DNA of 43,511 nt from a virus (IMGVR_UViG_2529292919_000025), one strand, 5' to 3'. Positions 29,829 to 34,932 are shown, counted from the first letter of the stretch. Notes: generated by a model not told the origin, from the letters alone. Program-made: numbers and translations.

Positions 29829-30018
29829 TCCCTAAACCACATTAACAGAAATCCCGCCATCCCTGCCGCATCATGAAAGAACGACCAGCCCGGCACCCGA
29901 AAGCCGGGCTGGTCATCGCCCCACAGGAATGCGCTGTGAGCCGACCAAGGTTCAGTCAGTCTCGCGAGACCTGACCAGACTGCCATATTTTTTAATAATT
30001 GTAAAAGGCTTACAGATT

Positions 30019-30783
30019 ATGAAAATGCAGACATTACCCATCGTGCCGTGGATTGGTGGCAAACGCCGCCTTGCAAAACACATTCTGCCGCTGTTTCCGG
30101 CGCATGAATGTTATGTGGAGCCGTTTTGTGGGGCAGCAGCGCTCTATTTTCTTAAGACACCCGGCAAGATCGAAGTCATCAATGATATCAACGGTGAACT
30201 GGTGAATCTGTACCGGGTGGTAAAGCATCACCTGGAAGAATTTGTCCGCCAGTTCAAATGGGCGCTGGTCAGCCGTCAGATCTACAAATGGCTGCAGATC
30301 ACCCCGGAAGAAACACTGACGGATATCCAGCGTGCGGCACGGTTCTACTACCTTCAGAAGCAGGCGTTTGGCGGCAAGGTGGCAGAGCACAGCTTCGGTA
30401 CCTCCACCACATCCCCGCCACGCTTCAACCTGCTGCGTATTGAAGAAGAACTGTCAGCGGCACACCTGCGGCTTTCCAGAACAGTCATAGAACACATGGA
30501 CTGGCAACAGTGCATTGAGCGTTATGATCGTCCGCACACGCTGTTCTACTGCGACCCACCGTACCTGGGTACGGAAGGCTATGGTGTGGATTTTCCTGAA
30601 GGGAACTACTCGCGGCTGGCAGAGCTGGCCCGGTGCATCAGAGGAAAAATGATAATTTCGGTGAACGACATCCCGCAGATGCGCGAGGTGTTCACTGGAC
30701 TGAACATACAGACAGTGAATATCAACTACAGTCTGGCGGGTAAACCCACGCCGCGCCGTGAACTGCTAATCTGCAACTTCTGA
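30019..30783 (+). CDS. Orphan DNA adenine methyltransferase (Dam-like, DPPY motif)
   Basis: N-terminal VPWIGGKRRL, FxGxAA (EPFCGAAA) and catalytic DPPY (FYCDPPYLGTEG); no adjacent restriction endonuclease gene visible. Confidence 0.8.
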   Translation: MKMQTLPIVPWIGGKRRLAKHILPLFPAHECYVEPFCGAAALYFLKTPGKIEVINDINGELVNLYRVVKHHLEEFVRQFKWALVSRQIYKWLQITPEETLTDIQRAARFYYLQKQAFGGKVAEHSFGTSTTSPPRFNLLRIEEELSAAHLRLSRTVIEHMDWQQCIERYDRPHTLFYCDPPYLGTEGYGVDFPEGNYSRLAELARCIRGKMIISVNDIPQMREVFTGLNIQTVNINYSLAGKPTPRRELLICNF

Positions 30784-30790
30784 AACAAAA

Positions 30791-30813
30791 CCGGAAAGCA
30801 CAATGCTTTCCGG
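30791..30813 (-). terminator. Rho-independent terminator candidate downstream of the repressor gene
   Basis: Perfect hairpin CCGGAAAGC-acaat-GCTTTCCGG followed on the minus strand by TTTTGTTTC. Confidence 0.5.
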
Positions 30814-30899
30814 TAAACCAAACAACTTCCACTATGTCACTGGCGATGTTTTCTGAAAGCATCCAGATCAACCACCTGTCCTTTGTGTCCGGGTCAGTA

Positions 30900-31256
30900 T
30901 CAGCCTGCGATTTTTCCTGGTTTTGGCTGAGTATAGAATCGCCCAATCTCAAGAAATGAGCGTTGTTGGTCTGGTGTCATGTCGTCAAAAGTATCTATTA
31001 GTTTTTGTTTTTCTGGGGAAATTTGATTCTGGTTTCTAGTCATACCATCTGTGCTCATTCCAGTGAGCAACCAATTTACATCAACATTAAACTCTTGATG
31101 CATCTTTAACAGAAACTCCCCTCCAGGCATCGCCTTTCCATTTTCAATCTGACTGATACCACCATTAGAAATACCTAAACGAGCTGCAAATTCTCTCTGG
31201 TTCAACCCTGCTTTCTTCCTCACAGAAATAACGCGCTCTCCTATATCTTTGCTCAT
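30900..31256 (-). CDS. Prophage repressor, XRE-family HTH
   Basis: 118 aa; HTH QREFAARLGISNGGISQIENGK; divergent from the Cro-like gene with a palindromic operator between them. Confidence 0.75.
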   Translation of the reverse strand: MSKDIGERVISVRKKAGLNQREFAARLGISNGGISQIENGKAMPGGEFLLKMHQEFNVDVNWLLTGMSTDGMTRNQNQISPEKQKLIDTFDDMTPDQQRSFLEIGRFYTQPKPGKIAG

Positions 31257-31280
31257 AAAAGTGAATCTCTATCTTGATAT

Positions 31281-31296
31281 GCTCATAATTATGAGC
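31281..31296. promoter_or_regulatory. Operator candidate: perfect 16-bp palindrome GCTCATAATTATGAGC
   Basis: Lies in the 93-bp divergent intergenic region; an extra half-site GCTCATAA (31251-31258) overlaps the repressor start codon. Confidence 0.5.
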
Positions 31297-31349
31297 AATA
31301 ATCTAACACATATAAGGCAAACATCATTGCATCAACAAAGGAGACAACG

Positions 31350-31538
31350 ATGACTGCAGAACAAGTCAAAGCTCTCTTCCGCCAGCGCGGGATCACTTTC
31401 ACCCGCTGGGCAGAAGAAAACGGCTACAACCGCAATGAGGTATACCGCGTTCTCAACGGGCAGACCAAAGCCCGTTACGGTAAATCCCATGAAATCGCCG
31501 TGAAGTTGGGACTGAAATCAACAGCTCAGGCGGCCTAA
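31350..31538 (+). CDS. Cro/Ner-position small HTH DNA-binding protein
   Basis: 62 aa, first gene of the rightward early operon, HTH-like ITFTRWAEENGYNRNEVYRVLNG; does not carry the WPxRY signature I associate with Mu Ner. Confidence 0.6.
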   Translation: MTAEQVKALFRQRGITFTRWAEENGYNRNEVYRVLNGQTKARYGKSHEIAVKLGLKSTAQAA

Positions 31539-31584
31539 ATATTTTGAGTCTTTGTAAAAGGTTATCACATATCGCAAAAGAGGT

Positions 31585-31899
31585 ATGCAGATGAGTAAGA
31601 CGAATGTTTCAAGCTCCGGCAGTCGCATCCTCCGGGTACTCAAAGCGCTGCGCGGTCATGCCCTGAACGGTATTTCTAACGGTGAACTGGCGACAGCACT
31701 GCACGAGTCACCGGCAAACATCAACCGGGCACTCAACACCCTCATTGAAGAAGGGCTGGCTCTGAAACTGGAGAACGGACGTTTTGCACCGGGCATCCAG
31801 TTACTGCAGATCGCCATGGCCCACAGTAACGAGATGGCACGTGCACAGGATCGTATTAACGAAATTAACCAACGTGTCATTTCAGGTAGTCGTTTGTAA
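31585..31899 (+). CDS. Winged-helix DNA-binding protein, hypothetical regulator
   Basis: 104 aa; ILRVLKALRGHALNGISNGELATALHESPANINRALNTLIEEGL resembles IclR/MarR-like wHTH. Confidence 0.5.
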   Translation: MQMSKTNVSSSGSRILRVLKALRGHALNGISNGELATALHESPANINRALNTLIEEGLALKLENGRFAPGIQLLQIAMAHSNEMARAQDRINEINQRVISGSRL

Positions 31900-31909
31900 G
31901 GAGTAATCA

Positions 31910-32830
31910 ATGGGACGTACCAAATCACCGATTAACACTGAACTGAACGCCGATGTACCGCTGTCGGATGATCTCAACGTCAGCCTGAATGCCATGACAC
32001 AGCATCGCATGGAGATCATGCAGCAGTTTGGTGATGGACTGCCTTATGAACGTGAACGCATCGTTCACGAAGCACGTTTTTATATGGCGCAGAGTGCTGA
32101 ATCTATGTTGGAAGCGGGTAAGCGGCTGATCATCTTAAAAGAAAATGAACCGCATGGTGATTTCACAAATATTCTGGAAAACGACCTCGGATTAGCACCA
32201 CAGGTAGCTCGTCGCATGATGCAGGCCAGCGTGAAATTTCTCGGCAATGGAGATGAACAGCCAAAACGCTCAGCGCTGAGCGTTTTGGGAAAAACCAAGT
32301 TATATGAACTGATGGTTCTGGATGACGAAGAACTCGACGCATTAGCTGATGGTGGAACCGTCGCCGGTGCAACGCTTGATGATATTGATCGCATGACCAG
32401 CCGCGAACTGAAGGCCGCCCTGCGTGAAGCGCGCGAAACCAACGCAGCTCAGCAACAGGTGCTTGCCGGAAAGGACGAAAAAATCAACGAACTGGCCACA
32501 AAACTGGAGAAGAAATCGCGCCTGCAACCTCCGCCGCCAGACGAAGAACTGAAAAAATTGCGGGCGGAAGTGATGGCATTAGCGGTTGAGGCCGAATCGG
32601 CTATCGCCGTCCAGCTGTCCAGTGTTTTTGAGACCCTGTGTGAATACTGCACCAAAAACATGATCGATACCCCCAGAGATTTCATGGCCGGTCTGGTCTG
32701 CCAGATTGAACGCAGTGTTCATGCATTACGTGAGACGTTTGACCTTGAGGCCGCTCCATCGGGTAACGATGCCCCCGCCTGGCTGACCGAACCGGAACCT
32801 GAAATCAACCGACCGGAGGATATGCAGTAA
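31910..32830 (+). CDS. Hypothetical early protein with coiled-coil and Pro-rich segment
   Basis: 306 aa between the regulators and the transposase; no catalytic motif recognised. Confidence 0.5.
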   Translation: MGRTKSPINTELNADVPLSDDLNVSLNAMTQHRMEIMQQFGDGLPYERERIVHEARFYMAQSAESMLEAGKRLIILKENEPHGDFTNILENDLGLAPQVARRMMQASVKFLGNGDEQPKRSALSVLGKTKLYELMVLDDEELDALADGGTVAGATLDDIDRMTSRELKAALREARETNAAQQQVLAGKDEKINELATKLEKKSRLQPPPPDEELKKLRAEVMALAVEAESAIAVQLSSVFETLCEYCTKNMIDTPRDFMAGLVCQIERSVHALRETFDLEAAPSGNDAPAWLTEPEPEINRPEDMQ

Positions 32831-33147
32831 TGAATACGAATAACACACAAAATACCCTGATGGACAGCCCGGAGGCACTGGGGCACGCACTGTGTAATCT
32901 GCTGCCGGAGATGGTGCAGGGTTTCCGCGTGGTGACCCCTTCCGGTGAAATCTGCGTACCCGCACAGGAGACGCACCCGTTTGTACTGACGATGGAGGTG
33001 ATGCTGATGCAGCAGATAAGACGTCTGCAGAATCAGTCAGCATTACGCCCGGTAGTTGCACCGCAACCGGTAAATACCGTGGTGAAAACCTGCGATGGCG
33101 AAACACTGTGCGACCTCGCCAGAAAAATTGCCGCCAGAATCGGATAA
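32830..33147 (+). CDS. Hypothetical early protein
   Basis: 105 aa, start overlaps upstream stop (ATGA-type coupling). Confidence 0.45.
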   Translation: MNTNNTQNTLMDSPEALGHALCNLLPEMVQGFRVVTPSGEICVPAQETHPFVLTMEVMLMQQIRRLQNQSALRPVVAPQPVNTVVKTCDGETLCDLARKIAARIG

Positions 33148-33162
33148 CAGGGAAGACAAGCT

Positions 33163-34932
33163 ATGACCCCGGCACTGACTGAAAAACTGGTTGAAACAGC
33201 CCGCGCGGCACGTGACGCGGGGCATGGTAAACGCGGTGCAATATACGACGCTGCCTGTGCTGAACTTGGCATGTCCCGCGCCACTCTGCTGCGCAGGCTG
33301 AAGGAGGTCTCTGTGACTGATAAACGCAAAAAACGCGCCGATGCCGGGCGCAGCGCCCTGACCCGCGACGAAGCCGCGCTGATATCTGCCACACTGCGTG
33401 AGGCCACCCGCAAGAACGGTAAGCGTCTCTATTCCATCGCGGATGCAGTGGAAACCCTGCGGGCTAACGGCTTTATATCCGCAGGCAGAACAGATGAAAC
33501 CACCGGTGAGTTTTTCCCGTTGTCCGAAGATGCCATCAGCCGAGCCCTGCGTAACTATGGCCTGCACCCGGAACAACTGGATGCCCCTGCGCCGCATACC
33601 GAAGTGGCCAGTCTGCATCCCAATCATGTCTGGCAGATTGATGCCTCGCTCTGCACGCTTTACTACCTGAGTAATGGACACAAAGGACTGCAGGTGATGG
33701 ACAGCGCGAAGTTCTACAAGAACAAGCCCGCTAACCTTGCCCGTATCGCCAGTGACCGCGTGTGGAGTTACGAGATTACCGACCATGCCAGCGGCTGGAT
33801 TTACGTTGAGTATGTGACGGGTGCGGAATCCGGTGAGAACCTGTGTTCTGTGCTTATCAACGCCATGCAGGAGCGTGGCGGCGCAGACGTGCTGCACGGC
33901 GTGCCGAAAATACTCTATCTCGACCCCGGCTCGGCAAACACCGCGGGTATGACGAAAAACATGTGCCGCTCACTGGGCATCGACCTGATAGCACACAAGC
34001 CGCATAACGCCCGCGCCACCGGACAGGTGGAAAAGGCGCGTGACATTATCGAACGCAAGCTGGAGCCGGGTCTGAAGTTCCGGCCGGTTCACAGTCTGGA
34101 AGAACTCAACGCGCTGGCCGCGAAATGGCGCAGCCACTTTAACGCCACGGCTGTTCACAGCCGCCACGGTAAAACCCGCACGGATATCTGGCTGAAGATT
34201 ACTGCTGAGCAGCTGAAAAAAGCGCCTTCCGTTGAGGTATGCCGTGAACTGGCTGTGGCGACACCAGAACTCCGCAAAGTCACGCCAAAACTTCGTGTCT
34301 CGTTCCGGGGCACTGAATTTGACGTATCAACGGTACCGGGCGTACTGGTCGGTGAAAAACTGATGATTACCCGTAACCCGTGGCGCAGCGATGTGGCACA
34401 GGTGGTTCTGACCGGTGAGGACGGCCACGAGGCGTTCTTCCTGGTCGAAGAGGTCAGAAAGAACGAGTTTGGCTTTGCTGAAAGCGCGGCGGTATTTGGC
34501 GAAAGTTACAAAGCCCTGCCGGAAACCCCGGCGCAGATGGCGGCAAAAGAAACCGAAGCGCTGGTCACCGGTACAGACAACGCCGCAGATGCAGCTGCCG
34601 CACGCAAGGCGAAGGCGCTGCCGTTCGGCGGGCGGCTTGACCCATATAAACATATTGATGACGCCACACTTCCGGCCTGTATACCGAAGCGAGGTCAGGC
34701 CTCTGACGTACGCGGGCTGCGCACTGAACAACGTCCCATGACTCATGTGGAGGCCGCGAAAGCCCTGCGCGATAAGTTCAGCGCCGACGGCCTTACCTGG
34801 ACGCCGGAACATTACCGCCAGTTAACGGCACAGTATCCGGACGGCGTACCGGAAGCCGCACTGGATGAAGTCATGGCCACGCTGACCACGCCGGCCCGCA
34901 GCAGCGTTATCAGCATTGTTAACGGCAACTGA
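33163..34932 (+). CDS. DDE transposase (MuA-like function)
   Basis: 589 aa; N-terminal HTH, central integrase-core-like region with candidate catalytic D residues (HVWQIDAS, ILYLDPGSANT) and a downstream E; followed by AAA+ ATPase, as in transposable phages. Confidence 0.75.
   Translation: MTPALTEKLVETARAARDAGHGKRGAIYDAACAELGMSRATLLRRLKEVSVTDKRKKRADAGRSALTRDEAALISATLREATRKNGKRLYSIADAVETLRANGFISAGRTDETTGEFFPLSEDAISRALRNYGLHPEQLDAPAPHTEVASLHPNHVWQIDASLCTLYYLSNGHKGLQVMDSAKFYKNKPANLARIASDRVWSYEITDHASGWIYVEYVTGAESGENLCSVLINAMQERGGADVLHGVPKILYLDPGSANTAGMTKNMCRSLGIDLIAHKPHNARATGQVEKARDIIERKLEPGLKFRPVHSLEELNALAAKWRSHFNATAVHSRHGKTRTDIWLKITAEQLKKAPSVEVCRELAVATPELRKVTPKLRVSFRGTEFDVSTVPGVLVGEKLMITRNPWRSDVAQVVLTGEDGHEAFFLVEEVRKNEFGFAESAAVFGESYKALPETPAQMAAKETEALVTGTDNAADAAAARKAKALPFGGRLDPYKHIDDATLPACIPKRGQASDVRGLRTEQRPMTHVEAAKALRDKFSADGLTWTPEHYRQLTAQYPDGVPEAALDEVMATLTTPARSSVISIVNGN

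Follow-up and report, generated by a model that had tools for sequence, protein, structure and literature searches.

The perfect palindrome between the repressor gene and the divergent gp16 gene of this prophage is, at a probability that we put at roughly 0.8, the primary operator (O1) of a 118-aa repressor of the XRE/434 type; at this site the repressor would silence the predicted early promoter Pe, assisted by two further sites (O2 and O3), the ensemble being exchanged between phages as a cassette. The window, by which we mean the whole 43,511-nucleotide stretch of viral DNA analysed, is 100% identical over a 1,151-bp query to Escherichia phage PhiKM (PQ738613, locus L001), a Bcepmuvirus. 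Its early operon runs on the plus strand from 31350, whereas long tail and head ORFs occupy the minus strand. Downstream of gp16 the operon encodes an IclR-like regulator (31585-31899), a DUF3102 protein, an rve-type transposase (589 aa, with rve as its sole match) and an AAA+ transposition protein; together with the Bcepmuvirus affiliation, the latter two genes bear out the previous description of the phage as transposable.

A perfect palindrome occupies the spacer of the predicted early promoter

The features of the immunity region, counted from the first nucleotide of the window, are as follows:

30900-31256, minus strand: prophage repressor gene, 118 aa, with the ATG read as CAT at 31254-31256
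~30903-31019, minus strand: conserved C-terminal module of the repressor, ~40 aa (residues ~80-118)
~31020-31256, minus strand: coding region of the variable XRE/434-type HTH domain
31020-31297, no strand: proposed exchangeable immunity cassette, ~280 bp (HTH-domain coding region with O3, O2 and O1)
31053-31068, no strand: O3, distal operator-like site within the repressor coding sequence, GCTCATTCCAGTGAGC
31251-31266, no strand: O2, putative weak auxiliary operator, GCTCATAAAAGTGAAT, with 8 of 10 core positions
31274-31302, plus strand: Pe, predicted early promoter (-35 TTGATA at 31274-31279, 17-nt spacer, -10 AATAAT at 31297-31302)
31281-31296, no strand: O1, proposed primary operator, GCTCATAATTATGAGC, core GCTCA-N6-TGAGC
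31318-31336, plus strand: leader motif CAAACATCATTGCATCAAC, downstream of the predicted Pe start and ahead of the gp16 ribosome-binding site
31350-31538, plus strand: gp16, 62-aa HTH protein and first gene of the early operon (TIGR04111, phrog_925)

The preliminary description of this DNA had reported a perfect 16-bp palindrome within a 93-bp divergent region. Both elements were recovered: the gap between the repressor ORF and the 62-aa HTH gene measures 93 bp, and GCTCATAATTATGAGC lies at 31281-31296, its symmetry remaining perfect for one further base on either side (18-mer TGCTCATAATTATGAGCA, 31280-31297). The arms GCTCA and TGAGC are 11 bp apart, centre to centre, a geometry in keeping with a dimer bound to an inverted repeat. 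Placed on the predicted promoter, the palindrome accounts for the entire 17-nt Pe spacer save the single T that precedes it, its centre lying ~20 nt upstream of the predicted start of early transcription (near 31309). Pe, which matches the consensus at 10 of 12 positions and faces the early operon, was the sole sigma-70-like site found by consensus scan in 30700-33300 and is predicted from its sequence to drive this operon.

Since the 43.5-kb window is expected to contain about 0.74 perfect palindromes of at least 16 bp, and contains two, the occurrence of one somewhere in the window is unremarkable. For the AT-rich 93-bp gap, 20,000 shuffles of its sequence gave a perfect palindrome just 41 times (p ~0.002). 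A search for the half-site elsewhere in the prophage, suggested previously, returned six copies of the 8-mer GCTCATAA where 1.05 were expected for the window, and three lie inside the 46 bp from 31251 to 31296; the exact full core GCTCA-N6-TGAGC occurs in two places only, O1 and 31053-31068. The remaining GCTCATAA copies (1694, 2232 and 9468) are isolated, have no partner arm and were dismissed as chance occurrences, as were three sites with one mismatch to the core (6408, 16876 and 20355). The second perfect palindrome of the window, the 18-bp ACGCTCAGCGCTGAGCGT (32266-32283) inside the DUF3102 gene, repeats the GCTCA/TGAGC arms of the operators at a spacing of N4 instead of N6. It is missing from all fetched relatives except PhiKM, including those of the same immunity type, and was set aside as unrelated or fortuitous.

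The palindrome varies with the DNA-binding domain of the repressor

The N-terminus of the repressor matches Pfam HTH_3 (PF01381; 55.8 bits, cut-off 23) and HTH_19 (53.3 bits, cut-off 30.2), the protein matches PHROG repressor families, and the nearest PDB relatives of its HTH are the 434 repressor (E=3.4e-8) and P22 C2. Based on the HTH_3 match and these nearest structures, the earlier assignment to the XRE type, and not to the Mu c type, is upheld. No Pfam or NCBIfam match to a Peptidase_S24 domain was obtained for the repressor. As to existing annotation, RefSeq E. coli genomes list the repressor as a helix-turn-helix domain-containing protein, and the GenBank record of PhiKM lacks the gene (L001 4884-5240, equivalent to window 30900-31256), giving instead a 41-aa ORF on the opposite strand at L001 4818-4943.

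Heteroimmune E. coli prophages match the window from ~31298 rightwards, that is, over the -10 element, the leader and gp16, at 84-97.5% identity, whereas leftwards the N-terminal domains of their repressors are unrelated to that of the window. In exactly this spacer, every one of these prophages has a palindrome of its own:

L002: TCCCATTATTGGGA
L003: TACACATTTGTGTA
L005 and L006: ATGAGAACAATAGTTCTCAT
L007: GGTTGAAAATTTTCTACC
L004 (E. coli 83972): GGTG...CACC

The same design was found in a wider set of 64 further loci with gp16 relatives, taken from species-representative genomes and spanning Enterobacterales, Pseudomonas, Pasteurellaceae and Burkholderiales. Using a criterion of arms of at least 7 with at most one mismatch, a palindrome was present in 34 of 51 distinct Pe spacers, compared to 3.0 expected from shuffles, and BcepMu itself and B3 show the same succession of -35, palindrome and -10. 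A different geometry was seen in Fc02 (L072 1325-1375), in which three GTCCC/GGGAC half-sites stand astride the -35 element (GTCCC-TTGACTAT-GGGAC-TTTGAT-GTCCC) instead of a single palindrome confined to the spacer.

Relatives of the same immunity type, drawn from Symbiopectobacterium, from Serratia and from several contigs of IMG/VR, provide the complementary comparison. In L009, L019, L080 and L083, the repressors are 64-67% identical to that of the window and share the recognition helix ISNGGISQIE. Their core GCTCA-N6-TGAGC is invariant, while the central six bases (TAATTA, AAATAA, TTATTG) and the flanks vary. Operator similarity followed repressor similarity (Mantel r=0.31, p=0.0005) more closely than gp16 similarity (r=0.15), and among pairs with close gp16 proteins it reached 0.80 when the repressors were similar, compared to 0.53 when they were not.

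Natural domain swaps were also encountered (chimeras L085-L088). A window-type C-terminal module joined to an L015-type HTH domain goes with GTCTAATTTTTTAGAC, and the same module joined to an L002-type HTH domain goes with TCCCAATTTTGGGA; at the level of sequence, these chimeras map specificity to the N-terminal HTH domain. Together, the position in the promoter spacer and the covariation of operator with HTH domain make the earlier proposal of a repressor operator very probable.

gp16 and the conserved leader

The product of the first early gene belongs to the BcepMu gp16 family (TIGR04111, 97.4 bits, cut-off 34; phrog_925, E=3.8e-33), and the gene shows DNA similarity to the ner-like genes of B3 and Fc02. 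By position it corresponds to Mu Ner and to the 'ner-like' gene of B3/Fc02; it is not demonstrably a homologue of Ner. The match to HTH_35 (PF13693) reached 17.9 bits against a cut-off of 25, hhalign with an approximate Mu Ner query gave a probability of 2.4%, and a PDB profile search returned no Ner among the gp16 matches.

The -10 element of Pe and all sequence downstream of it are kept in heteroimmune relatives. Within this constant stretch, the non-coding motif CAAACATCATTGCATCAAC, which holds the direct repeat CATCA-TTG-CATCA, is kept from E. coli as far afield as Pseudomonas and Betaproteobacteria, irrespective of immunity type, and may, judging from this conservation, be a candidate binding site of the equally conserved gp16. 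A search of 30800-32000 against Rfam (E up to 1) returned no RNA family in the leader. In Serratia sp. Ag1 (L019, 1822-2689), Pe and leader precede a 184-aa ORF that begins with the five gp16 residues MTADQ and then diverges, an intact gp16 gene being found ~600 bp beyond, as though an insertion or a recombination event had occurred immediately inside the gp16 start.

Which protein reads the palindrome

The preliminary description had seen in this region a lambda-like switch, of which the XRE repressor divergent from a small HTH protein stands. Its further implication, that the repressor and gp16, acting as Cro, compete for the palindrome, we consider improbable, even though the divergent genes reproduce the classical CI/Cro geometry and the small HTH protein would be the first to be expressed from Pe. 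The gp16 proteins of the window and of L004 are 100% identical, as are those of L002 and L003, and within each pair the palindromes differ completely; between the window and L004, the leader is 97.5% identical, while both the N-terminal domain of the repressor and the palindrome are different. On this comparative evidence, gp16 does not read the palindrome. In agreement, operator similarity tracks the repressor and not gp16, and what stays constant alongside gp16 is the leader after the -10 element and not the palindrome. The other lambda attributes are absent as well: there is no S24 domain, and in place of an adjacent operator triplet, the 93-bp gap holds one perfect and one weak site, with the third lying 228 bp away inside a gene.

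Recognition by some other regulator appears less probable still. The early operon does encode a second HTH regulator, the IclR-like protein, but the very same protein (WP_000047758.1) is found in L002 and L004 beside different palindromes; a host factor would leave type-specific palindromes within one host species unexplained, and the variable cassette codes for the repressor HTH domain and nothing else. The least likely reading is that the symmetry is a chance or structural property of an AT-rich spacer with no regulatory role, and that the extra GCTCATAA is a by-product of a Met-Ser start. One or two perfect 16-bp palindromes are indeed expected per 43 kb, and 6 of the 8 nucleotides of the extra half-site are coding; against this stand the low shuffle probability for the 93-bp region itself, the recurrence of palindromes at the same position in two thirds of the distinct relatives, the invariance of the arms around a variable centre in diverged phages of the same immunity, and the far greater frequency of cognate over non-cognate sites described below. 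A repressor operator remains the reading that we retain.

Two further sites accompany O1

Aligned on their arms, the three sites read as follows:

O1, 31280-31298: T GCTCAT AATT ATGAGC AA
O2, 31250-31268: T GCTCAT AAAA GTGAAT CT
O3, 31052-31070: T GCTCAT TCCA GTGAGC AA

These relationships were independently recovered by a repeat finder, and all three sites are conserved in the relatives with 64-67% identical repressors.

The half-site previously noted 30 bp from the palindrome, over the repressor ATG, was located at 31251-31258, where GCTCATAA lies exactly 30 bp from the arm of the same orientation at 31281. It forms the left arm of O2, which covers the start codon at 31254-31256 and whose centre is 30 bp (~3 helical turns) from that of O1. 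This is the only good arm of O2 (9/12 in the strict arm score), and 6 of its 8 nucleotides are the coding bases ATGAGC. The form GCTCA-N6-TGAAT is retained in all relatives of the same immunity. Throughout the family, extra half-sites 29-34 bp upstream of O1 are more numerous than expected (36 observed, 9.8 expected), the upstream cognate half-sites clustering where an O2 at ~30 bp would place them, and by the strict score a proximal cognate site occurs in 6 of 27 immunity types compared to 1 of 702 non-cognate pairs. These sequence comparisons support the view that the extra half-site is not coincidental and represents the strong arm of a weak operator.

O3 lies inside the repressor gene, 228 bp from O1, and its arms are coding (Leu-Leu-Thr and Met-Ser, within the encoded peptide LLTGMS). 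Its core is exact in every same-immunity relative fetched, comprising five distinct repressors of 64-94% amino acid identity plus near-duplicates. The arms are invariant in the five distinct sequences, while invariant codons make up 20% overall of those for conserved residues; the Thr codon in the centre of O3 varies by synonymous change. In heteroimmune chimeras, the same LTGMS peptide is encoded as CTT ACG GGT ATG AGC, by which O3 is destroyed. As for O2, cognate sites prevail in the family: distal intragenic ones were found in 8 of 27 immunity types and in 12 of 702 non-cognate pairs (strict score). This excess indicates that the extra sites are real features of the family, though not universal ones, the types possessing them by the strict score amounting to about a quarter to a third of the 27. 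Across immunity types the O1-O3 distance ranges from 175 to 259 bp with no common helical phase, and we accordingly do not propose a rigid in-phase loop.

The specificity determinants probably form an exchangeable cassette

The C-terminal module of the repressor (SPEKQKL.DAFD.MTPEQQRSFLEVGRFYTQPKPGK.AG) is conserved across heteroimmune E. coli repressors with unrelated HTH domains; it might serve in oligomerisation, or be a shared target of induction or anti-repression. Homology between the window and the heteroimmune E. coli prophages ends at ~31298 on the right-hand side and, on the left, is picked up again within the 3' portion of the repressor gene. As the C-terminal module on one side and the -10 element and leader on the other are conserved, the variable unit is a cassette of ~280 bp, with the conserved coding region of the C-terminal module at its left edge and the -10 element of Pe at its right edge.

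A more speculative view, which we put forward only tentatively, is that immunity specificity throughout the BcepMu/B3-like transposable phages would be borne by such a self-contained cassette, recombining between the C-terminal module and the -10 element of Pe; that its operators would constitute a small repression loop around the DNA that encodes the recognition domain; and that gp16, the leader and the C-terminal module would make up an immunity-independent system of counter-repression, effective on all heteroimmune members.

A model for repression of the early operon

The sequences themselves display where the sites lie and how the operator covaries with the HTH domain; repressor binding with its stoichiometry and cooperativity, the parts played by O2 and O3, and the place of the repressor's own promoter are inferences. 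In the resulting model, a repressor dimer bound to GCTCA-N6-TGAGC would fill the whole spacer between the -35 and -10 elements of Pe, RNA polymerase would be excluded and the early operon (gp16, the IclR-like regulator, DUF3102 and transposases A and B) would stay silent, thereby maintaining lysogeny and conferring immunity. O2 would probably be filled cooperatively and, because it covers the start codon, would probably limit repressor synthesis, making negative autoregulation probable. O3 would probably raise occupancy via looping or serve as a roadblock. Between otherwise near-identical phages, the HTH domain and the three operators would be swapped together as a unit of ~280 bp.

Consensus scans of 30700-33300 for a minus-strand repressor promoter found Pe alone, and manual inspection yielded weak candidates only; with no convincing promoter on this strand, autoregulation of the repressor is conjectural. 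By analogy with Fc02, the repressor could be transcribed from a distal promoter beyond gp16.

Relation to known systems

The gene layout itself is already known. BcepMu has a lysogenic repressor, gp17, and a divergent DNA-binding protein, gp16, with the same layout in KS10 (PMC2628397); for phiE255, a "lambda CI-like" regulator has been described in the corresponding position (PMC2920897). In a temperature-sensitive repressor mutant of the B3-like phage Fc02, heat inactivates the divergent repressor and thereby turns on the early promoter pE, homologous to Pe, whose first gene is ner-like; the lysogenic repressor transcript starts at a distal promoter, pC1, beyond ner (PMC9936078). This experiment in a relative favours the model given above. 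All five phages (BcepMu, KS10, phiE255, B3 and Fc02) resemble the present one: an XRE/CI-type repressor gene faces away from a small HTH gene (gp16/ner-like) with which the early transposition operon begins. Operators are left undefined in PMC2628397, PMC2920897 and PMC9936078; the original BcepMu and B3 genome papers, which lie beyond the scope of this work, may hold more. The site sequences and the O1/O2/O3 layout are new detail for the E. coli lineage.

With the 434 and P22 systems the present one shares an HTH of the 434/P22 C2 kind, inverted repeats with a variable central 6 bp, and overlap with a divergent promoter region. The 434 and P22 C2 repressors bind inverted repeats whose arms are about one helical turn apart, and in the 434 operator, ACAA-N6-TTGT, it is likewise the outer arms that are constant and the 6 bp at the centre that vary. 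Unlike these, the repressor of the window has no S24/RecA-cleavable C-terminal domain, its sites are one strong, one weak and one distal intragenic instead of three adjacent ones, and the small partner protein does not share the operators.

The contrast with Mu that had been drawn earlier holds in part. The repressor is of the XRE type and not of the Mu c type, but the opposition was overstated, as Mu follows the same divergent repressor/Ner logic: both are transposable phages with a divergent repressor and small early regulator, three operators, and lysogeny through repression of the early promoter. The DNA-binding domain of Mu c is related to the enhancer-binding domain of MuA, and the Mu operators double as transposition enhancer. 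In the window, by contrast, the repressor matches XRE-type HTH families only, and the transposase shows the rve core only.

A main promoter operator combined with a weaker intragenic site a few hundred bp away also recalls lac O2, located in lacZ, and the reported distal operators of the lactococcal phages TP901-1 and r1t, which are generally explained by looping via an oligomeric repressor. Here, O3 differs in lying inside the repressor's own gene, within an exchangeable specificity cassette.

Overall, we are dealing in all probability with a genuine operator of a familiar kind that had not previously been pinpointed for a common family of E. coli prophages. The three-site layout, the exchangeable cassette and the immunity-independent gp16 are useful refinements and not surprises; they correct the picture of the switch, in that gp16 is not an operator-sharing Cro, and leave the general principles of phage regulation unchanged.

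Distribution of the immunity module and neighbouring features

Of 5,426 complete E. coli genomes, 391 carry the immunity region with essentially no change, O25b:H4-ST131 isolates among them. The early-operon backbone occurs 682 times, in 623 E. coli genomes and with up to three copies in one genome, compared to 399 places in 397 genomes for the window-type immunity module. It follows that BcepMu-like prophages sharing a genome mostly differ in their immunity cassettes, and the counts are consistent with the exclusion of homoimmune phages, clonality being a confounding factor in this comparison.

With the heteroimmune versions included, more than 620 E. coli genomes are concerned. For these, the operator, the promoter and the cassette bounds offer a simple means of typing immunity groups, and knowledge of the operator helps predict the co-residence of BcepMu-like prophages. 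The same elements lend themselves to the design of reporters, of virulent operator-mutant derivatives and of orthogonal repressor-operator pairs.

Between the convergent dam methylase and repressor genes lies a G+C-rich hairpin of 11 pairs (ACCGGAAAGCATTGTGCTTTCCGGT, 30790-30814), which heteroimmune relatives also possess and which probably serves as a terminator in both directions. The neighbouring Dam-type methylase ORF (29929-30783) encodes 284 aa in both the window and PhiKM. In RefSeq relatives, the methylase genes are 765 bp long and start at an internal MK.Q(T/S)LPIVPW; accordingly, the true start of the Dam-type gene is probably near 30019.
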